Of a DNA stretch of 64,000 nucleotides, positions 2,726 to 62,849 are shown piece after piece. How positions within the stretch are numbered: position 1 is the stretch's first letter; each line of letters begins with the position of its first letter. This stretch comes from Escherichia virus TH40: the sequence record MT446411.1; one strand, given 5' to 3'. The notes beneath the pieces were generated by a model. That model was not told the origin of the DNA and searched no databases. It was given only the letters and a program-made list of their open reading frames with translations. Position numbers and translations under genes: made by a program.

Positions 2726-3008
2726 CTTCCAATTTTACCTTCATTAATTTAGCGTATTCGACTGCAGCAGCCCGGCCATCAATTTGACATGTGATTTCAT
2801 TTACACATTGACTCTTATTGTTCCATTCAGTTTTAATAAAAGCCCAAAATTGTTCGGACTGCTCGACGCTGGGTTCTTTGAATTGCGAATAGATTTGCAT
2901 CGCACTATCTGCATATTGTGTAAATTTACCATCTGTAGCAGAGGACAGATTTGGGCCTAAACAGCCCATTAGTAATAGACTTAGAGAAAGTCCTCGAATA
3001 AGGTCCAT
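2712..3008 (-). CDS. putative lipoprotein
   Basis: ATG at 3008 preceded by AAGGAG; N-terminus MDLIRGLSLSLLLMGC has signal peptide plus lipobox (L-M-G-C). Confidence 0.5.
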   Translation of the reverse strand: MDLIRGLSLSLLLMGCLGPNLSSATDGKFTQYADSAMQIYSQFKEPSVEQSEQFWAFIKTEWNNKSQCVNEITCQIDGRAAAVEYAKLMKVKLEDEIR

Positions 3009-3082
3009 AAAGGACTCCTTATTGTTGGTCATGATTACGCTTTGCAGCCTTAACATAGCGGAATACTAGTTAGTAACTGTAT

Positions 3083-3358
3083 TTATAATCTTTTAAACTT
3101 GAAACAATATATTGCAAATAAATCAGAAAAATGTCTATCAACCCATATTCTTTGCACTGGACTAGTAACAGTCAGCATATAATGTGCTTTTTGTAAATTT
3201 ATTCCATTTTTATTCGGGCATTCTTTATTAACAGAATGGTACGTGCTTGCTACTATTTCAATTTCCCTTTCATATCTCTCGCTATCTGTTTGTGTGGGGA
3301 TAAATGCAATTCCAGCAATAACAAAAATAGAGATATACGTCCAAATCTTATATATCAT
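3083..3358 (-). CDS. hypothetical protein with N-terminal transmembrane helix
   Basis: 91-aa ORF; IWTYISIFVIAGIAFIPT hydrophobic stretch. Confidence 0.45.
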   Translation of the reverse strand: MIYKIWTYISIFVIAGIAFIPTQTDSERYEREIEIVASTYHSVNKECPNKNGINLQKAHYMLTVTSPVQRIWVDRHFSDLFAIYCFKFKRL

Positions 3359-3365
3359 AAGGACC

Positions 3366-3938
3366 TCAGCTTGTCAATTCGAGCCAATGTTTCCTGCATA
3401 AAGATACGTACGATTCATTCCCACCAACTAACACTTGCTCGCCGTCCTTTACAGCAGCACCGTCGATTACTCGAGCGGTCATGGTTGCTTTCCGGCCGCA
3501 ATGGCAGACGCCCTTTAATTCAACCAGTTTATCCGAAATAGCCAGAAGTCTGGCTGAACCGGGAAATAACTGACCCCGAAAATCTGTTCTTAGCCCGTAA
3601 CACATAACGGGGATATTGTAATTATCAACCACTCGTGCTAACTGGTCAATTTGCTCTGGTAGCAAAAATTGAGCTTCATCGACCAGGACACAATGGATAT
3701 CCTTTTGAGACTCGGCCCATTTATAGAATTCAAACAGGTTCATGTCGGCCGTTACCAGGTTTGCTTCCTGGCTAATACCAATACGTGATTTAATTTCAGA
3801 TTCCGAGTCCCGATTATCAATAACAGGTTTTAGCAAAAGCACACTCATTCCACGCTCTTTATAGGAATAAGCTGCAGTCAGCAATGAAGCTGTTTTGCCT
3901 GCATTCATTGCTGCGTAATGATAAATTAAACTCGCCAT
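3366..3938 (-). CDS. tk: thymidine kinase
   Basis: 190 aa; P-loop AAMNAGKT and C-terminal zinc-ribbon Cys pairs typical of type II thymidine kinase; position as in T4. Confidence 0.9.
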   Translation of the reverse strand: MASLIYHYAAMNAGKTASLLTAAYSYKERGMSVLLLKPVIDNRDSESEIKSRIGISQEANLVTADMNLFEFYKWAESQKDIHCVLVDEAQFLLPEQIDQLARVVDNYNIPVMCYGLRTDFRGQLFPGSARLLAISDKLVELKGVCHCGRKATMTARVIDGAAVKDGEQVLVGGNESYVSLCRKHWLELTS

Positions 3939-3947
3939 ATCACCTTC

Positions 3948-4133
3948 TTATTCTGTAATACTTTCCAGATAATTTTCTAAATCGTCTGAAGCCTTATTAA
4001 GGGCTTCTAGCGCTTTATAATAGTCTTCACGGGAGTAATATTCTGTATGAAGTTCTTCGTCGTATTCGCTTTTAGCATCAACAACAGTTTCAATCATATC
4101 CAGAATTTTATTTTTCTGTTCTTTAGTAATCAT
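3948..4133 (-). CDS. hypothetical small acidic protein
   Basis: 61-aa ORF. Confidence 0.4.
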   Translation of the reverse strand: MITKEQKNKILDMIETVVDAKSEYDEELHTEYYSREDYYKALEALNKASDDLENYLESITE

Positions 4134-4141
4134 AATATACC

Positions 4142-4327
4142 TTAAAGAGTATTCACATAAGCAATTAATTCGTTTTCTTTCTCATCAAACCGATTAGCAA
4201 ATTCTTCCTGATGTTCGGCATCTATCGGGCCGTATCCATCATAAAAAGCGTTCGCTTCCGTATGCTCGTCCAAAAGCTCATGGATAAGCTCAAACAATCT
4301 ACTTTTCTGACTAATACTTAAACTCAT
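4142..4327 (-). CDS. hypothetical small acidic protein
   Basis: 61-aa ORF. Confidence 0.4.
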   Translation of the reverse strand: MSLSISQKSRLFELIHELLDEHTEANAFYDGYGPIDAEHQEEFANRFDEKENELIAYVNTL

Positions 4328-4530
4328 TTCGGTTCACCTTGTTTTACAAAGTCTGGATACGGTTGAAACCCGGAATAGAAACCAGCGCCTGCATGATTCA
4401 CACACCCTTTATTAGAACAATAGCACCAATAATCAAAGTCACATATCATTTCATCGTTGCATAAAGCAAAAACAACTGGCCATTTACACTTTTCACAGTG
4501 AGCATTTTTAAGAATACTAGTTTGACTCAT
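4324..4530 (-). CDS. hypothetical Cys-rich small protein
   Basis: 68 aa with multiple CxxC-like pairs. Confidence 0.4.
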   Translation of the reverse strand: MSQTSILKNAHCEKCKWPVVFALCNDEMICDFDYWCYCSNKGCVNHAGAGFYSGFQPYPDFVKQGEPK

Positions 4531-4981
4531 AATCCACCACTATCAAATCAATATCAGGAGTAAACATATCAATTAACCGGGAAACCTTATCCCAATCACC
4601 ACCTGCAATACCACAACCAATCCTGGGAATATAAATCACAGGCTTGAACAAAAGTGATTCTGCTTGTCGATTTAATTCTATCATGCAATTTACTAAAGCA
4701 CCATAATCCAGATTTGGACCCGGTTCATACTGGGTATAAAGGTTATAACACATACCAAATCCAGTTGGTTTATGTTTAAAAACGATAGACATATCACCGA
4801 GTTTTTCCCGGGAACCGTACTCAGTTGATGTCTTATCCATTTCTAAAATTTTTGGGTAAGCCTTTGCCAGTTGACCAGCAACGCCTGAACCCATTGTATG
4901 GAAGCAGTTACAGCCATGAGCTATGATGTTTCCTTCGAGAAAGAGGGCGACAATATCGCCCTTAATATAGTTAACAATCAT
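4517..4981 (-). CDS. macro-domain protein (ADP-ribose binding/processing fold)
   Basis: 154 aa; GDI...IIAHGCNCFHTMGSGVAGQL and IPRIGCGIAGGD match macro-domain motifs (compare E. coli YmdB N-A-A-N...GGGV and ISTGVYG). Confidence 0.6.
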   Translation of the reverse strand: MIVNYIKGDIVALFLEGNIIAHGCNCFHTMGSGVAGQLAKAYPKILEMDKTSTEYGSREKLGDMSIVFKHKPTGFGMCYNLYTQYEPGPNLDYGALVNCMIELNRQAESLLFKPVIYIPRIGCGIAGGDWDKVSRLIDMFTPDIDLIVVDYESN

Positions 4982-5337
4982 TTAGAGTTCAATCCTCTAT
5001 TATAGGAATCGACTAACCTGTCAACCATACTGGTGCAGGCCGCTTTATATTTGGCACTCGACAGAATACAATCCATTTCAAATAGTTTCTTTTCATATTT
5101 GTTGGATAAAGTACTCTTTTTCATAAGAGTGTGTTCAACATCATTTTGGCCGTCTTTATATGCCGCGGTGAGCTTGGCACTAAACCGGATTACACAATCC
5201 ACATTGCTTGATGCGCAATAATCTTTGGCCGTCCTCGTTGCATATTCTATGATGCTATTATTATCATCGCTCTGTACTGAAGCTATTCCTCCCGTGCTGA
5301 ATACTAACCCTATGGCTAAAGTTATGACTCTTACCAT
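4978..5337 (-). CDS. hypothetical secreted protein
   Basis: 119 aa with N-terminal signal-peptide-like MVRVITLAIGLVFSTGGIASVQS. Confidence 0.5.
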   Translation of the reverse strand: MVRVITLAIGLVFSTGGIASVQSDDNNSIIEYATRTAKDYCASSNVDCVIRFSAKLTAAYKDGQNDVEHTLMKKSTLSNKYEKKLFEMDCILSSAKYKAACTSMVDRLVDSYNRGLNSK

Positions 5338-5880
5338 TTAATCCACCATTTTTAATAGGCCTCGTGATTTTAAGTAGTTAGCTTTTTCTAGGACCTGTGA
5401 AGCATACGTATTTCCAGCTTTCACATTCCACCCTGCGTTATATGATGATAGTGTTTTTCTTATGTCCCCCTTGTGAATGTTCAACCAGTATGAAAGCTCA
5501 ATATAAGCCCAGCGCGCGCTGTTTTCTCTCTTGCTTATCATCTTGATTATTTCTTTATCTGTCATTGTCCACCCAACCTGTTTCACGCGTTCGCGCACGG
5601 TTGGAAGATAATTTTGGAATATACCATATGCATGATGCTTATCTTTATTTAATCCTGTATTAACACCAGCAGATGATTCCTGCCAGGTTAAACCAGCCAT
5701 GATATATCCCAAACCATTATGTTGGTGCGGATTTTCTTTGTACTTACCATTTTTCTGGAACTGTTCTCCAAATGCATACGCATATTGAAGATTTTCCATC
5801 TGTTCATTACTGAAAGTAGGCTCTACGCTATGGGCAGACATACTAACTGTCAATAGTAAGGTGGCGATTACTTTTTTCAT
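5338..5880 (-). CDS. lytic transglycosylase-like protein with signal peptide
   Basis: 180 aa; signal peptide MKKVIATLLLTVSMSAHS; TWQESS ... AYGIFQ resembles SLT-domain catalytic E-S and G-[LI]-x-Q motifs. Confidence 0.55.
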   Translation of the reverse strand: MKKVIATLLLTVSMSAHSVEPTFSNEQMENLQYAYAFGEQFQKNGKYKENPHQHNGLGYIMAGLTWQESSAGVNTGLNKDKHHAYGIFQNYLPTVRERVKQVGWTMTDKEIIKMISKRENSARWAYIELSYWLNIHKGDIRKTLSSYNAGWNVKAGNTYASQVLEKANYLKSRGLLKMVD

Positions 5881-5890
5881 GAATTCCTCA

Positions 5891-6349
5891 TTAGATATAA
5901 ATCACTTTTGTGCTAATTTTTCCTTCCAGACGATTAGAGTTAACAAACGCCATACGACAACACATGGTCGGAGACTTCCCAGGAAGAGCCGGGTTAACTG
6001 TCATTCCTAGCCATAAGTTCTTGTCTGTGATTTCCAGACGAAGTGGACGGTAGTTCACATTCGGGTCAATTTGTGCTTCAACTTCTGGAAGCGGTTCCAT
6101 TTTTAAGAATTCAACAATTTCTTTTACATGTGGTGTGATTTTTCCAAACAAGTCAAAAACATATTGTTCGTCAATTTCACGTTGGATTGCACGGTCCAAC
6201 AGGTGCGGACTGTACTTAATGAAGAATGCTTCAAGGCCTGCTTCTTTACAAGCCTTGTTGATAGCATTATTAATTTTGAGGAACTCCGTTTCAAAAATAC
6301 GACGAAGTTTATTGCGGCGAATGTAAACACTTGAATCGATAGTAGTCAT
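5891..6349 (-). CDS. regB: RegB endoribonuclease
   Basis: From ATG at 6349 (GGAG SD) the protein MTTIDSSVYIRRNKLRR...HLLDRAIQREIDE...RLEITD...CRMA closely matches T4 RegB. Confidence 0.8.
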   Translation of the reverse strand: MTTIDSSVYIRRNKLRRIFETEFLKINNAINKACKEAGLEAFFIKYSPHLLDRAIQREIDEQYVFDLFGKITPHVKEIVEFLKMEPLPEVEAQIDPNVNYRPLRLEITDKNLWLGMTVNPALPGKSPTMCCRMAFVNSNRLEGKISTKVIYI

Positions 6350-6392
6350 GATTATCTCCTTTTGTTTGATGGGATAATCATAACTCATTTCA
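6350..6392 (-). promoter_or_regulatory. early-promoter-like cassette
   Basis: minus-strand gagttatgattatcccatcaaacaaaaGGAGataatcATG; member of repeated family. Confidence 0.35.
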
Positions 6393-6405
6393 ACCTGCTT
6401 GTACA

Positions 6406-6711
6406 CTATTCTTTAAAACGAATTAGCTTATTTAATGACTGTGAGACTTCAGCACGAACAGCGTGTAAATTCTTAAGCTGTTCAAGGCGTTGCTCGTAGT
6501 AAGCAATTTCATCTTCTTCAAGACAGTCGTTTGAATCTTCTTTAAGATAGTTCCCGTAGTCCTGAAAGGCCTTACGAATAACTTCTTGGAAATCGTCTAG
6601 ACTTTGAATTTTTGGTTGTTTCGATGTGAATCCAAACGGATTGGAATCATTTATGCGGCGATGAGAAGCGGTTGATAACTCATAACCAAAACCAGAATTA
6701 ATCTGCGCCAT
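6406..6711 (-). CDS. hypothetical protein
   Basis: ATG at 6711 overlaps upstream stop (TAATG). Confidence 0.45.
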
Positions 6712-6974
6712 TAGTATTTTTCCTCGGGTCGAAATACTGCACGACATGCCCACATGCTGGCTTCTTTTAGATGTTGCTTAGCATACTTAAGAGCCTGCAC
6801 TGCATCCATATCTTCTTTGGTTTGTTGCTCTGTTTCATTTTCTTTCAAGATATATGCTTCTTCAATCAGAGCATCAAACATCAATCCAAGACGGACTTCT
6901 GCATCTTTAATAGCGTTCACTTTACCGATTTTATCATCGGTATGTGGCTTGTAACCTTTGATATCTTCAATCAT
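6711..6974 (-). CDS. hypothetical protein
   Basis: ATG at 6974 with GAGGAAG SD; ATGA overlap with upstream gene. Confidence 0.4.
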
Positions 6975-7189
6975 TTCACTTCCTCGCCAGTTGCGATATC
7001 GTATTCTACCAAACGAAGTCCGTCGGTCCACCCTTGCACGGAGATATAAGTGCTAGGATAAACCAGTTCTTTACCGTTCCACTGACCACCGTCCCAAACT
7101 TCCAGAAAGTCTTGTTCGCCCGGGCCATTAAACCATTCAACGAATCTTTTCAAGGCTGCATCAGAGCCTTCAATCGTCAGTTTAGACAT
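6971..7189 (-). CDS. hypothetical protein
   Basis: ATG at 7189; track start at 7204 is GTG. Confidence 0.4.
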   Translation of the reverse strand: MSKLTIEGSDAALKRFVEWFNGPGEQDFLEVWDGGQWNGKELVYPSTYISVQGWTDGLRLVEYDIATGEEVK

Positions 7190-7478
7190 ATTTTTTCCAG
7201 TCACTAATTAATCGCACATCCTGGTCATACGTCAGGAGGCTACGAGTTATAATACCCTTACATGGTCCAGAAATAAATTCCAGAGTAAAGTAAGGAACCA
7301 ACTTCATCAAGCGAATACTCGGAGCAGTGCAACGAAATCTGGACCCAATAAAAGGTCCAGACAAAAACACATACTCAAAGAAATTAGCTTTATTAAAGAT
7401 TTCAAAATTCTTTACGAAATCCTCAGACCTAACCTTTGGAATAAAATAGATTTGGTCAAAAAGCTCTTCATGGGTCAT
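7182..7478 (-). CDS. hypothetical protein
   Basis: 98-aa ORF. Confidence 0.4.
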   Translation of the reverse strand: MTHEELFDQIYFIPKVRSEDFVKNFEIFNKANFFEYVFLSGPFIGSRFRCTAPSIRLMKLVPYFTLEFISGPCKGIITRSLLTYDQDVRLISDWKKYV

Positions 7479-8023
7479 TATTGCATTCCAATCACAAAAA
7501 ATTGAGGACGAACTGTTTCACCCGTTTTAAAACAATGAGCATGACAGCAGTGTTGTACAGTTTTCATATGGATATCGTAAATCTTGTCCATATCAGGAGC
7601 TTTAATAGGTTCATCAATTATATACAATACGCGTGAAAGTGCAAGGCCACGGAATTTAGAACCTTCATTACCGATAAAGCTACGTAATGAATCATGGAAA
7701 AGCCGGTAACGAATATCTTCCGCGCTAAAACGAATAAAATCATTTTTGATAGAATCGGATGAAATTCTTGCATAAGCCGAGGTATTAGACAGGACAATTA
7801 CTGTACCTCCGTCATAAATCCAGTTAGCGGCAAAATTAGTTACTGCAGTAGATTTACCTGATTGTCGCCCGCCATCCATACGGAGTGTGCAGTATTCTTT
7901 GAGCAAGACTTCCATTGGAGGAATATAACAATCGGTCTTACAAAGTTCTTCTATTCGAGCATCAGAATGGTGGGTAAAAGCATTCATCAGGGATAGATAA
8001 GGTCCAGTTAAAAAAGTTCTCAT
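7478..8023 (-). CDS. P-loop NTPase-like hypothetical protein
   Basis: 181 aa; Walker-A-like GGRQSGKST and Walker-B-like LYIIDEP. Confidence 0.5.
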   Translation of the reverse strand: MRTFLTGPYLSLMNAFTHHSDARIEELCKTDCYIPPMEVLLKEYCTLRMDGGRQSGKSTAVTNFAANWIYDGGTVIVLSNTSAYARISSDSIKNDFIRFSAEDIRYRLFHDSLRSFIGNEGSKFRGLALSRVLYIIDEPIKAPDMDKIYDIHMKTVQHCCHAHCFKTGETVRPQFFVIGMQ

Positions 8024-8110
8024 ATTGTTTCTCTTAAGGTTTTGGGGCCATTCCTTGGCACATTAATTCGTCCATGTATCCGAATGTAAACCCCTTACCG
8101 CACTCGGGCT
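8024..8110 (-). promoter_or_regulatory. putative early promoter
   Basis: minus-strand GTTTAC -35-like, about 17 nt, ATTAAT -10-like, then AAGAG SD and ATG. Confidence 0.3.
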
Positions 8111-8187
8111 CGACCTTATTACAGGTAGGGAAAGGTCCATCACTCAGAGGACACGACGTTCATGAGGAGAGGGTCGGTTTGCCTTTA

Positions 8188-8487
8188 TTAAAAAGAACCA
8201 GAGCCTTTAATTGTGTTCTGGCGACCTTTATTTTCGAATTCAGAATGGTCGATTTCGTATGCTTGTGCTACGCCAAAGGCCTTTTTAACTTTAGCTAAAG
8301 AACCTTTAGTTGTAACAATATTAAAAGTATTGCCTTTGGTAAAATCAACCAAATCCACTTGCACCCCTTGTTTACCAAGGCTTGCTACAATAGCATCAAC
8401 ATATTGTTGGTCTAAATTGCCTTGAACCCCAATTTGAAATGCTTTAGGAACTTTGGCTTCTGTGATAAATTCTTGATATGTTTTCAT
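8188..8487 (-). CDS. internal-protein-like head protein with capsid-targeting sequence (CTS)
   Basis: N-terminus MKTYQEFITE matches T4 IPII/IPIII CTS MKTYQEFIAE, with I-x-E prohead-protease cleavage motif. Confidence 0.7.
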   Translation of the reverse strand: MKTYQEFITEAKVPKAFQIGVQGNLDQQYVDAIVASLGKQGVQVDLVDFTKGNTFNIVTTKGSLAKVKKAFGVAQAYEIDHSEFENKGRQNTIKGSGSF

Positions 8488-8500
8488 ATTGTTTCTTTAA

Positions 8501-8815
8501 TCAAGCTTTAGGGAAATCGCGCAAAAATGCATCATAAAGTTTATTACCAATGCGACGAAATGCTTTTGCTGCATGAACGTTATCTGGGTTTGCAATTTTA
8601 ATCTGCATTACATGACTACCAGCCCATGATTTAGCTTCGTCATAATAACCTTTAATTTCTTTAATAGTCTTGCGTTTTCCACCAGGACCATCAACAGTAA
8701 TTTTCCACGAACCAGTGCTTGTTTCACTTGGTGGGGTTAACTGTTCAATCCAGACATAACCACCTTCAACACGTTGTTGAGTAGATTCAGTAATAAATTC
8801 TTGATAAGTTTTCAT
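8501..8815 (-). CDS. internal-protein-like head protein with CTS
   Basis: ATG at 8815 gives MKTYQEFITEST...; track start 8854 is an upstream extension. Confidence 0.7.
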   Translation of the reverse strand: MKTYQEFITESTQQRVEGGYVWIEQLTPPSETSTGSWKITVDGPGGKRKTIKEIKGYYDEAKSWAGSHVMQIKIANPDNVHAAKAFRRIGNKLYDAFLRDFPKA

Positions 8816-8863
8816 TTTATATTCCATTGTTTGGTTGATAAAATCATTATACAACCTTTTTAG

Positions 8864-9850: not shown

Positions 9851-10312
9851 TTATCCGAAAATTTGAGTCAAAACCTTATACATCGATTTACCCATTACGT
9901 ATTGCCATTGACTTGGTTTAATCAGAGCAAATGCATCAAACTCTGGGACCGAACTACCATCCGGGAAGGTATGATATGCGGAGCATTTACTATGTCTGAA
10001 TTGCTCATGCTCGACCGGAACCGTGTACAAAAACAGGTGAAGGTTTTTATTATCTGAATAACGAAACTCGCCTAGGTCTTTTAAGAATGCCGGGTCATAC
10101 TTGGTAAAACCTGTTTCTTCTTCACATTCACGCATAGCTGCTTCAATCAGGGATTCACCGGCTTCAACATGACCCTTAGGGATATCCCATTTATGCGCAG
10201 GCATACCCGGTTTGCGAGAACCAGTCACGCGCCCCATGAATAACTCTTTATCTTCAGTCATGAAAATAATACCAGCAGATAATTCTTTCGCCGCGTTTTT
10301 CTTACTCATCAT
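9851..10312 (-). CDS. nudE: Nudix hydrolase
   Basis: ATG at 10312; Nudix box GHVEAGESLIEAAMRECEEETG; position after e as in T4. Confidence 0.8.
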   Translation of the reverse strand: MMSKKNAAKELSAGIIFMTEDKELFMGRVTGSRKPGMPAHKWDIPKGHVEAGESLIEAAMRECEEETGFTKYDPAFLKDLGEFRYSDNKNLHLFLYTVPVEHEQFRHSKCSAYHTFPDGSSVPEFDAFALIKPSQWQYVMGKSMYKVLTQIFG

Positions 10313-10538
10313 CACGTTCCCAAGATTTTTTAAAGATTTCAGCCATAATAATTTCAATGCGTGTTTCTGTTGAAGGAGATTCACTACTAGAAGTTTGAAC
10401 TCTGTATTCAGAAATCGGGCGGAACAAGTCCAGGTCAATTTCTAAATCATCTTTGATTTCAACTTCGGGTGTACCTTTATCATAGGAATACAGGTAAGAA
10501 TCACATGACTCTGATTTAATATAAATTGCAATACTCAT
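10302..10538 (-). CDS. hypothetical acidic protein
   Basis: 78-aa ORF overlapping nudE start. Confidence 0.4.
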   Translation of the reverse strand: MSIAIYIKSESCDSYLYSYDKGTPEVEIKDDLEIDLDLFRPISEYRVQTSSSESPSTETRIEIIMAEIFKKSWERDDE

Positions 10539-19084: not shown

Positions 19085-19160
19085 TGGTCGAGACAGTAGG
19101 AATCGAACCTACGACCCAGGACTTAGAAGGTCCTTGCTCTTCCTTCTGAGCTATGCCTCG
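19085..19160 (-). tRNA. tRNA-Arg (anticodon UCU)
   Basis: 76-nt cloverleaf folded by hand: acceptor CGAGGCA/TGTCTCG, D-arm GCTC-AGAAGGAA-GAGC, anticodon stem AGGAC/GTCCT with loop CTTCTAA, T-arm GTAGG-TTCGATT-CCTAC, encoded CCA. Confidence 0.8.
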
Positions 19161-19293: not shown

Positions 19294-19367
19294 TGGTGGC
19301 CCTGGGTGGAATCGAACCACCATCCAGCGATTATGAGTCGCTCGCTTGACCGTCCAGCTACAGGGCC
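19294..19367 (-). tRNA. tRNA with CAU anticodon (Met, or Ile if lysidine-modified as in T4)
   Basis: 74-nt cloverleaf: acceptor GGCCCTG/CAGGGCC perfect 7 bp, anticodon stem AGCGA/TCGCT with loop CTCATAA, T-arm GGTGG-TTCGATT-CCACC, encoded CCA. Confidence 0.75.
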
Positions 19368-60629: not shown

Positions 60630-61295
60630 TTATTTTAAAGTGACAAAAGATGAGTTACGAGTTTCTCGTACTAGAACAGACCCATTACGATTGATGTAAT
60701 AAATCAAACTGAATAGGGTTTGATGCGCGGTGGGATGTGGGAAAGCAGTTGGACGTTCTTTCCAATCCGGAGTCTCAGAAATCCACTGATAAATCCACCA
60801 TGGAACAGTACAGAATCCAGGGTTCTTGCCAATAAGCATAAGATTTGGACTAAAGTTTTTTGGTAGAGCAAATACAGGTTTTTCAGATTCGATAACCTTA
60901 GCAACAGCTGCTTCGAACTTTTCTTCGATAAAAGGAACATCTTCTTCGACCAAAACAACTGGTTCTTTGATTTCAACAACTTCAACCTTTGCTTCGGTTG
61001 GAGCATCAAATAAGAGTTTAGCTTCTTCTTTAGCTGACTCATCGCCATCAAATTTAGCACCTGACAATTCATCGTCAGCATCAATAAGGTCGGTGATGCT
61101 CAGGCCTTCATTATCATCAGGCATAGGCATGTCAGCAAATGCTTTAAGTCCTGCTTCCAGGTCAGCCAACATATTATCAAAGGTTTTTGTTTTCTTAACA
61201 TCAACGCCAAGTGATGCTGCATATTCGGCTAATTTTTCTTTGGCTTCTTTTTTCTCGAGGACACGAATTTCCTCAATGTAGTTCTTGTCAATCAT
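60630..61295 (-). CDS. inh: acidic protein in inh position (inhibitor of prohead protease-like)
   Basis: 221 aa, position between hoc and uvsW as T4 inh. Confidence 0.65.
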   Translation of the reverse strand: MIDKNYIEEIRVLEKKEAKEKLAEYAASLGVDVKKTKTFDNMLADLEAGLKAFADMPMPDDNEGLSITDLIDADDELSGAKFDGDESAKEEAKLLFDAPTEAKVEVVEIKEPVVLVEEDVPFIEEKFEAAVAKVIESEKPVFALPKNFSPNLMLIGKNPGFCTVPWWIYQWISETPDWKERPTAFPHPTAHQTLFSLIYYINRNGSVLVRETRNSSFVTLK

Positions 61296-61313
61296 GATGA
61301 ACCTCGGTTAGTG

Positions 61314-61321
61314 TATAAATA
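61314..61321 (+). promoter_or_regulatory. T4-type late promoter TATAAATA
   Basis: exact motif 29 nt upstream of uvsW ATG. Confidence 0.6.
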
Positions 61322-61349
61322 TAGATATATTTATTACCTTGGAATCATC

Positions 61350-62849
61350 ATGGATATTAAAATCAACTTTCTAAATTTTAGTCACGTGCATGTTGAATGT
61401 GAAGATGGAATCTTCTACGAACTCCGTGATTACTTCAGCTTCGAAGCTGAAAACTATCGCTTCAATCCAAAATTCAAGCAGGGAGTTTGGGACGGACGAA
61501 TCCGCCTCCTGGATTACAATCGTAAATTACCATACGGTTTGGTTAATCAAATTAAAAAGTTCGCTGACCAGTTTGGCTATTCATTCTGGATTGACCCACA
61601 AATCACCGAGAAAGAAGAAATCTCTCGCGAAGAATTCGACAAATGGGTCGAGTCAAAAGAAATCTATTCAGGCAATACTAAGATAACGCCCCATTGGTAT
61701 CAATCTGACGCCGTATATGATGGTCTGGTCAACAGAAGAAAGATTCTGAACTTACCTACGTCTGCAGGTAAAAGTCTCATCCAGGCGCTTCTGGCGCGAT
61801 ATTATCTCGAGAACTATGAAGGCAAGGTACTTATCCTTGTTCCTACAACCGCGCTTGTTGACCAGATGATTAATGACTTTGTTGATTATCGTCTGTTCCC
61901 TCGTGAAGCTTGTCTGGGTATTCGTTCTGGTACCAAACGCGATTCTGATGCGATGATTTATGTATCGACTTATCAGACGGCTGTAAAACAACCTAAAGAA
62001 TGGTTTGAACAGTTTGGTCAGTTTATGAATGACGAATGTCATATGGCTACAGGTAAATCAATTTCGACGGTTATCGAAGGCCTTACGAATTGTATGTTTA
62101 AATTTGGTTTGTCCGGTTCACTCCGTGACGGCAAAGCCAACCTTATGCAATATATGGGTCTGTTTGGTGATATCTTTAAACCAGTATCAACATCTAAATT
62201 GATGGAAGATGGTCAGGTCACTGACCTTAAAATAAATAGTATTTTCCTTCGTTACCCTGATGAATTTACCGTTAAAATGAAAGGTAAAACTTATCAGGAT
62301 GAAATTAAGGTAATTACAAAAGCTACACGCCGAAATAAATGGGTAACAAATCTTGCTCTCAAGCTTGCTAAAAAAGATGAAAACGTCTTTTTGATGTTTA
62401 AGAATATCGAGCACGGTAAATCGATGTTTGAAATGCTTAAGGAAGCTGGTCATGAGAAAGTGTATTATGTTTCCGGGGAAGTTGATACCGAAACTCGTAA
62501 TGCATTAAAGGTCATGGCAGAGAATGGAAAGGGAATTATCGTTGTAGCTTCATATGGCGTATTCTCGACGGGTATTTCCGTTAAAAACCTCCATCATATT
62601 ATTTTCGCCCACCCGGTCAAGTCAAAGGTAATTGTACTCCAGACAATTGGTCGTGTGCTTCGAAAACATGAATCCAAATCACAAGCAAACGTTTTTGATA
62701 TCGTGGATGATATGGGGGTTAAACCTAAATCGGTAAATGCTAAAAAGAAATATGTTCATTTGAACTTTGCCCTAAAACATGGTCTTGAACGTATACAACG
62801 ATATGCTGATGAACGTTTTAACTATGTAATTAAACAGGTGGAAATTTGA
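61350..62849 (+). CDS. uvsW: UvsW ATP-dependent DNA/RNA helicase
   Basis: From ATG 61350: MDIKINFLNFSHVHVECEDGIFYELRDYF..., DExH helicase motifs (LPTSAGKS, MNDECH) match T4 UvsW. Confidence 0.92.
   Translation: MDIKINFLNFSHVHVECEDGIFYELRDYFSFEAENYRFNPKFKQGVWDGRIRLLDYNRKLPYGLVNQIKKFADQFGYSFWIDPQITEKEEISREEFDKWVESKEIYSGNTKITPHWYQSDAVYDGLVNRRKILNLPTSAGKSLIQALLARYYLENYEGKVLILVPTTALVDQMINDFVDYRLFPREACLGIRSGTKRDSDAMIYVSTYQTAVKQPKEWFEQFGQFMNDECHMATGKSISTVIEGLTNCMFKFGLSGSLRDGKANLMQYMGLFGDIFKPVSTSKLMEDGQVTDLKINSIFLRYPDEFTVKMKGKTYQDEIKVITKATRRNKWVTNLALKLAKKDENVFLMFKNIEHGKSMFEMLKEAGHEKVYYVSGEVDTETRNALKVMAENGKGIIVVASYGVFSTGISVKNLHHIIFAHPVKSKVIVLQTIGRVLRKHESKSQANVFDIVDDMGVKPKSVNAKKKYVHLNFALKHGLERIQRYADERFNYVIKQVEI
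62827..62845 (+). repeat. 19-bp direct repeat, copy 1 (3' end of uvsW)
   Basis: taattaaacaggtggaaat, identical to 63519..63537. Confidence 0.8.

Follow-up and report, generated by a model that had tools for sequence, protein, structure and literature searches.

Between the vs and tk genes of Escherichia virus TH40 (MT446411.1) lies a short open reading frame (ORF) whose product looks like a free-standing macrodomain. The locus raises two questions: whether such a gene is new to this part of a T4-like genome, and which ADP-ribose conjugate its product would act on. We analyzed the ORF within the whole 64,000-nt stretch of TH40 DNA, referred to here as the window, and compared it with the genes of T4, with relatives in phages and bacteria, and with macrodomains of known structure.

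Genomic position and the T4 ortholog

The ORF runs from ATG to stop on the minus strand and encodes 154 amino acids, while the plus strand is riddled with stops over this stretch. The Gaprivervirus phages TH15, vB_EcoM_VR25, VR20, VR7, and UPEC01, which are T4-like Tevenvirinae, share 95-98% nucleotide identity with the region, and the protein of phage TH15 is 100% identical to that of the window. Using tblastn, we found a homolog in 2,782 of 50,697 phage records. The labels carried by the relatives varied and included 'tk.4', 'phosphatase', 'macro domain-containing protein', 'Poa1p-like family protein', and 'Appr-1-p processing domain protein'. Copies that are identical or nearly so already carry a macrodomain label in GenBank.

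In T4, the gene tk.4 (T4p110, NP_049723) is annotated as 'contains A1pp phosphatase motif' and lies between tk.3 and vs, an arrangement that is the same in T6. The window protein aligned with T4 Tk.4 over 152 residues with 59% identity, 75% positives, and 0 gaps (E=8e-71). BLASTP against the T4 genes gave collinear matches for 16 neighboring genes, in the series rI.-1, rI, tk, tk.1, tk.2, (tk.3 slot), tk.4, vs, vs.1, regB, vs.3, vs.4, vs.7, vs.8, denV, and e. T4 Tk.4 occupies the same genomic slot, its gene keeps the 4-nt ATGA overlap with vs (T4 coordinates 61386-61733 for vs and 60922-61389 for tk.4), and it shares the invariant residues described below, including Q84. The two proteins differ only by ordinary ortholog divergence, for example in the phosphate loop, which reads IGAGIGKGNW in T4 and IGCGIAGGDW here. 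Judged by sequence and gene order, the ORF is the ortholog of T4 tk.4 in a T4-like Gaprivervirus phage. The initial annotation knew of no macrodomain gene at this position in T4; a syntenic one is present at exactly the same position, so the novelty that this remark implied was mistaken. The gene is already known, both as an annotated member of the T4 family and through the counter-defense role of the T4 copy, which was reported in 2025 under the name AdfM.

Table 1 Features of the tk.4 locus, with coordinates in the window.
Feature	Position	Strand	Basis
tk.4 / adfM ortholog, 154-aa stand-alone macrodomain protein, ALC1-like (TARG1/DarG/SCO6735) class	4517..4981	(-)	
ATGA, overlap of vs stop codon and tk.4 start codon	4978..4981	(-)	sequence reading
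vs (valyl-tRNA synthetase modifier), upstream neighbor, synteny anchor	4978..5337	(-)	46% identity to T4 Vs; PHROG 1256
tk.3-slot ORF, 68 aa, Cys-rich, downstream neighbor	4324..4530	(-)	ORF list; PHROG 2306
H22-G23-C24-N25-C26 codons	4904..4918	(-)	conservation in 121 sequences; alignments
G31-S32-G33, GxG loop after second strand, lines ADP-ribose cleft	4883..4891	(-)	conservation; alignment
N80-L81-Y82-T83-Q84	4730..4744	(-)	HMMER, hhalign, and hmmalign alignments
I121-G-C-G-I-A-G-G-D-W130, Gly-rich phosphate-binding loop	4592..4621	(-)	conservation; alignment

The start of tk.4 overlaps the stop of vs and its 3' end is overlapped by 14 nt by the tk.3-slot ORF, which places it in a tightly packed minus-strand cluster that extends from 8023 to 3366 with no intergenic gap longer than ~10 nt. 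The ATGA overlap suggests translational coupling of vs and tk.4. Based on the gene packing, from which we also take its timing, tk.4 is probably co-expressed with the regB-vs-tk cluster.

We also searched for promoters around the cluster. No MotA box was found upstream of tk.4 in a pattern search. One MotA-box-like middle-promoter pattern (TGCTTTA-N12-TAGAAT, at 4675-4700 (-)) lies inside the tk.4 coding sequence and faces the tk.3-slot, tk.2, tk.1, and tk genes; across the window the pattern matched 7 times, against a chance expectation of 2.6, and 7 was reached in 1 of 100 shuffles. A sigma-70 promoter and terminator scan of 3000-8500 was uninformative, with 12 promoter-like sites against 16.4 expected. 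The sole sizeable non-coding gap upstream of the vs.8-to-tk block is a relatively G+C-rich stretch of ~165 nt at 8024-8187 (-). It holds a possible early promoter for the cluster with tk.4 (GTTTACA, then ATTAAT 17 nt on), but the -10 element is poor and the match is unconvincing.

Several other features of the window were noted. The tk.3-slot ORF encodes a Cys-rich sequence (CEKCKW...CNDEMICDFDYWCYCSNKGCVNH) and had no BLASTP match to T4 Tk.3. The products of the tk.1 and tk.2 orthologs, at 3948-4133 and 4142-4327 (-) and of 61 aa each, both match PHROG 653, and the two genes are thus tandem paralogs. Two adjacent ORFs at 8188-8487 and 8501-8854 (-) have the peptide MKTYQEFITE in common; it matches the first residues of T4 IPII and IPIII (81-85% over 13-16 aa), and beyond it each protein is unrelated. 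These look like variable internal head proteins with a capsid-targeting leader, and the true start of the second is probably an internal Met. Two tRNA genes, Arg (TCT) and Met (CAT), were found at 19085-19160 and 19294-19367 (-), a set much smaller than that of T4. A Nudix hydrolase gene at 9851-10438 (-) (PHROG 1185, E=1e-73) occupies the position of T4 nudE/e.1, a gene annotated in the T6 record as active on ADP-ribose, NADH, and FAD. As a speculation, this enzyme could consume ADP-ribose freed by the macrodomain.

Macrodomain class and active site

The protein matched positions 2-117 of the 118 in the Pfam Macro profile (PF01661), with E=1.4e-8 and a score of 35.1 bits (cut-off 22), and it matched PHROG 335 with E=5e-70. 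The initial annotation had proposed a macrodomain on the strength of three hallmark motifs, all of which are present, at residues 8-10 (GDI), 19-38 (IIAHGCNCFHTMGSGVAGQL), and 121-129 (IGCGIAGGD) of the protein. An AlphaFold2 model based on 95 homologs (mean pLDDT 96.1, pTM 0.90) has the three-layer alpha/beta/alpha macro fold, with the ADP-ribose cleft that the initial annotation had taken as decisive. Both Gly-rich loops of this cleft are conserved, namely G31-S-G33 after strand 2 and the phosphate loop G122-C-G124-I-A-G127-G128. We conclude with high confidence that the protein is a macrodomain, as family profiles and structure prediction both bore out.

Within the macrodomains, the protein is a member of the ALC1-like class, which holds TARG1, DarG, and SCO6735, and not of the MacroD or viral Mac1 class. 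Among solved relatives, BT1257 gave the best profile score (72 bits), followed by TARG1 (63), SCO6735 (61), Poa1p (59), and DarG (45-49), and the pairwise scores agreed. The curated DarG models gave low and partial matches: the DarG2 equivalog NCBIfam NF048014 scored 30.1 bits against a cut-off of 250 and covered only model positions 2-138 of 338, and PADLOC DarG scored 29 bits and covered only positions 3-143 of 329. Scores with the curated NCBIfam models for deacetylases and for ADP-ribose binding were 13-18 bits, against cut-offs of 252-291.

The latter scores bear on the possibility that the protein is a metabolite-directed hydrolase, disposing of small ADP-ribose derivatives either as a phosphatase of ADP-ribose-1''-phosphate, as yeast Poa1p does, or as a deacetylase of O-acetyl-ADP-ribose, and they argue against it. 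The label 'phosphatase' on relatives most likely comes from the old domain name A1pp and not from an assay. It also counts against this reading that, to our knowledge, T4 RNA repair by Pnk and Rnl generates no Appr>p. Overall, we consider a metabolite-directed enzyme improbable.

To characterize the active site, we analyzed conservation in 121 sequences, consisting of the query and 120 database homologs, mostly from phage-like contigs and down to 37% identity. H22, G23, N25, and C26 were invariant where aligned (119 of 121 sequences, with a gap in 2). N25 aligns with DarG N22, SCO6735 N27, and PhiKZ AdfM N23, while H22 aligns with SCO6735 H24; mutagenesis of the residues equivalent to the H22-C26 motif is described in PMC9411070 and PMC13309987. 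In the GxG loop, G33 was invariant and G31 was present in 110 of the 121 sequences, and S32 is at the site of SCO6735 K34 and DarG K29. In the phosphate loop, G122 and G124 align with SCO6735 G126 and G128, of which a G128E mutant has been characterized (PMC9411070), and the second catalytic residue of TARG1, D125, aligns with Ala126. We rejected the possibility that C24, C26, H28, and C123 form a metal site, given that C123 is Ala in 41 of the 121 sequences and H28 falls below the 90% conservation list.

We found Q84 at the site of the catalytic lysine of DarG (K80) and TARG1 (K84), which corresponds to Gln85 of SCO6735. This placement was obtained with the HMMER profile against TARG1 and BT1257, with hhalign against M. 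tuberculosis DarG (a reference sequence that exactly matches PDB 5M3I), and with hmmalign of eight reference sequences. Q84, N80, and Y82 were invariant in the 121 sequences and also in 80 homologs from bacterial genomes. The search patterns for the bacterial loci did not include Q84, N80, Y82, or D49, so the invariance of these residues is no selection artifact; one pattern did include H22, N25, and C26.

Comparison with bacterial, human, and PhiKZ macrodomains

SCO6735 and BT1257 (PDB 5E3B and 2FG1, from S. coelicolor and Bacteroides) belong to a Gln-type subclass of ALC1-like macrodomains, in which the lysine is replaced by glutamine just as in Tk.4-type proteins. SCO6735 outpaces DarG and TARG1 in stripping thymidine-linked ADP-ribose from DNA, and it rescues DarT toxicity (PMC9411070). 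Its activity is abolished by Q85A and nearly abolished by N27S, and the mechanism proposed for it is water-initiated, with Asn27 holding Gln85 and Gln85 positioning the distal ribose (PMC9411070). The residues of the window protein equivalent to those of SCO6735 are H22, N25, Q84, G122, and G124. In DarG and TARG1, K80 and K84 are the key catalytic lysines. Because Gln84 is a substitution of the SCO6735 type, the absence of the DarG lysine is no argument against reversal of DarT2 modification, and Gln84 itself points to SCO6735-like chemistry.

However, the window protein differs from this subclass in several respects. It is phage-encoded and only 27-29% identical to SCO6735 and BT1257. Relative to the Tk.4 profile, these two proteins carry an insertion of 5-6 residues after the Gln, the 'mobile loop', which is about five residues longer in the SCO6735 subclass than in DarG and TARG1 (PMC9411070). 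The mobile loop of SCO6735 carries Lys89, and the window protein and other Tk.4-type proteins are without the insertion. In the GxG loop, the DNA-positioning Lys34 of SCO6735 is replaced by Ser32 in the window protein and by Ala in most relatives; among the 80 bacterial homologs, this position was Ala in 59 and Lys in 3. This alignment sets the window protein apart from ordinary members of the SCO6735 subclass, as it has neither the long mobile loop nor Lys34.

The differences from DarG2 and human TARG1 concern both the active site and the gene context. The DarG2 macrodomain (M. tuberculosis 5M3I, T. aquaticus 5M31/5M3E) has K80 where the window protein has Gln. DarG2 further has a DarT-binding domain at its C terminus and a darT gene next to its own, whereas the window protein is a macrodomain only, with vs and the 68-aa ORF as its neighbors. 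TARG1 (OARD1, PDB 4J5R) has the dyad K84/D125 in place of Gln84 and Ala126.

These comparisons are relevant to whether the protein could protect without catalysis, either through binding to DarT2 or because it shields or occupies DNA that carries ADP-ribose (interaction-inhibition). The catalytically dead mutants SCO6735 Q85A, DarG K80A, and TARG1 K84A retain the ability to inhibit DarT in vitro, SCO6735 most strongly (PMC9411070). However, the strict invariance of H22, N25, and Q84 down to ~33% identity argues for an enzyme, and the 154-aa protein, which matches positions 2-138 of the 338-position DarG model, is without the DarT-binding C-terminal domain. Purely non-catalytic protection is accordingly a reading to which we assign a small chance.

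PhiKZ gp104, also named AdfM, is a nucleus-imported macrodomain that removes thymidine-ADP-ribose formed by DarT2 in vitro (Morgan et al., Cell Rep 2026, PMC13309987). Like the Tk.4 type, it is a phage-encoded stand-alone macrodomain countering DarTG2. It differs in being of the Lys type, keeping N23 and K78, whereas T4 Tk.4 is of the Gln type. We found that gp104 scores 72-91 bits with DarG macrodomains and 5-12 bits with Tk.4-type proteins. Since gp104 is DarG-like and barely similar to Tk.4, two groups of phages have recruited different sub-lineages for the same job. The name AdfM was given independently to these two proteins, which is likely to confuse annotation.

Scanning one genome per species, we located at least 498 bacterial loci with relatives at 32-43% identity, although some of the contigs may be phage or prophage. 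At the sampled loci, Pfam and NCBIfam scans of the neighbors showed the gene to be free-standing beside housekeeping genes, including rpoC, ileS, metH, and genes for PLP-dependent (PALP) enzymes. It lies directly downstream of rpoC in Ruegeria (L014) and of ileS in Hyphomicrobiaceae (L009) and Jannaschia (L053), on the same strand in each case. A neighboring ORF of similar size and position was seen in the Ruegeria loci L015, L018, L038, L039, and L055 and in the loci L019, L047, and L049. We rejected the idea that the adjacency to a tRNA-synthetase gene echoes T4 vs, as the neighbor encodes IleRS and not ValRS. A tblastn search for DarT2 within 4 kb on each side of 80 loci, a weak test with a single P. 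aeruginosa query, gave no match below E=0.68. As this search found no darT beside the bacterial homologs, gene context does not link the family to DarT. In being orphans, these free-standing relatives of Tk.4 resemble SCO6735.

Candidate role against DarT2

DarT2 ADP-ribosylates thymidine in single-stranded DNA and thereby blocks phage replication. In a November 2025 preprint, T4 transposon insertions were screened on E. coli that expressed DarTG2; tk.4 alone was a significant hit, and its clean knockout became sensitive to DarTG2 (bioRxiv 10.1101/2025.11.20.689424). The authors noted the structural similarity of Tk.4 to M. tuberculosis DarG, renamed the gene adfM (anti-DarT factor macrodomain), and wrote of enzymatic removal of ADP-ribose from DNA only that it 'seems likely' (bioRxiv 10.1101/2025.11.20.689424). 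A different T4 protein, AdfN (gene 30.3), is a NADAR enzyme for the guanosine adducts of DarT1. The leading idea of the initial annotation, that the protein reverses DNA ADP-ribosylation by DarT, agrees with the DarTG2 sensitivity of the T4 knockout. As this phenotype is known for the T4 copy alone, at 59% identity, we infer both its transfer to the window ortholog and the action of that ortholog by hydrolysis.

By analogy with these systems, the protein is probably a thymidine-ADP-ribose DNA glycohydrolase resembling an orphan antitoxin, which would counter DarT2 through Gln-type, water-mediated chemistry. The macrodomain would bind the ADP-ribose that host DarT2 has attached to single-stranded phage DNA at thymidine N3 and would hydrolyze the glycosidic bond, so that the DNA is freed for replication and ADP-ribose is released. 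The chemistry would probably not be the lysine-based one of DarG and TARG1 but would use Gln84, as in SCO6735, and be water-initiated. Against this explanation stand the absence of Lys34 and of the long mobile loop with Lys89, both linked to DNA handling in SCO6735, the score of 30 against 250 bits with the curated DarG model, and the bacterial homologs, beside which the single-query search found no darT.

Other ADP-ribose conjugates could also be the target. The initial annotation put forward two further roles, breakdown of immune signals and control of the phage's own ADP-ribosyltransferases, neither of which gained support in our analysis. Degradation of ADP-ribose-derived immune signals or toxins, such as the cyclic ADPR isomers of Thoeris or other soluble derivatives, is a generic proposal for phage macrodomains (PMC9503650). 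The nearest structural and sequence relatives of the window protein are nucleic-acid or protein de-ADP-ribosylases and DarTG2 is the only reported phenotype, which makes a signal degrader very improbable.

The protein might instead regulate or erase the marks set by the phage's own ADP-ribosyltransferases, including RNAylation. The known transferases Alt, ModA, and ModB modify arginine, and we know of no cleavage of the arginine linkage by TARG1-class enzymes, which counts against such a role. T4-like phages do carry Alt, ModA, and ModB (PMC9503650), and SCO6735 and TARG1 act on protein substrates too (PMC9411070). However, no alt or mod gene is linked to tk.4 within the window, the end of which lies near uvsW and gene 24, and the T4 screen found tk.4 as a DarTG2-specific hit and reported no DarTG2-independent requirement for it. 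We therefore hold this role to have only a very small chance of being correct. All four alternatives, including the metabolite-directed hydrolase and non-catalytic protection, leave the DarTG2-specific phenotype of the T4 knockout unexplained, and removal of DarT2-attached ADP-ribose from DNA is the reading that we favor.

Two points, the Gln-for-Lys active site and the division of AdfM into a Tk.4 type and a PhiKZ type, go only slightly beyond the cited papers. They are of modest specialist value: they suggest Q84A and N25A as the mutants to make and SCO6735, not DarG, as the comparator.

The substrate range may also be wider than this reading implies. The invariant Tk.4-type signature HGCNC...D...NxYTQ is present in many phages and at the free-standing bacterial loci counted above. 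TARG1, DarG, and SCO6735 also cleave N3-uracil-ADPr on RNA (PMC13036486), which makes a wider range plausible. Tentatively, Tk.4-type proteins could represent a third catalytic variant of the TARG1/DarG class, combining an SCO6735-like Gln with a loop as short as in DarG and TARG1 and having no DNA-positioning lysines, with substrates possibly broader than DarT2 damage. If this were true, they may act on N3-uracil-ADPr RNA or on the products of undiscovered host ADP-ribosyltransferases, and the family would be a general eraser of ADP-ribosylation rather than a DarTG2-specific antidote.
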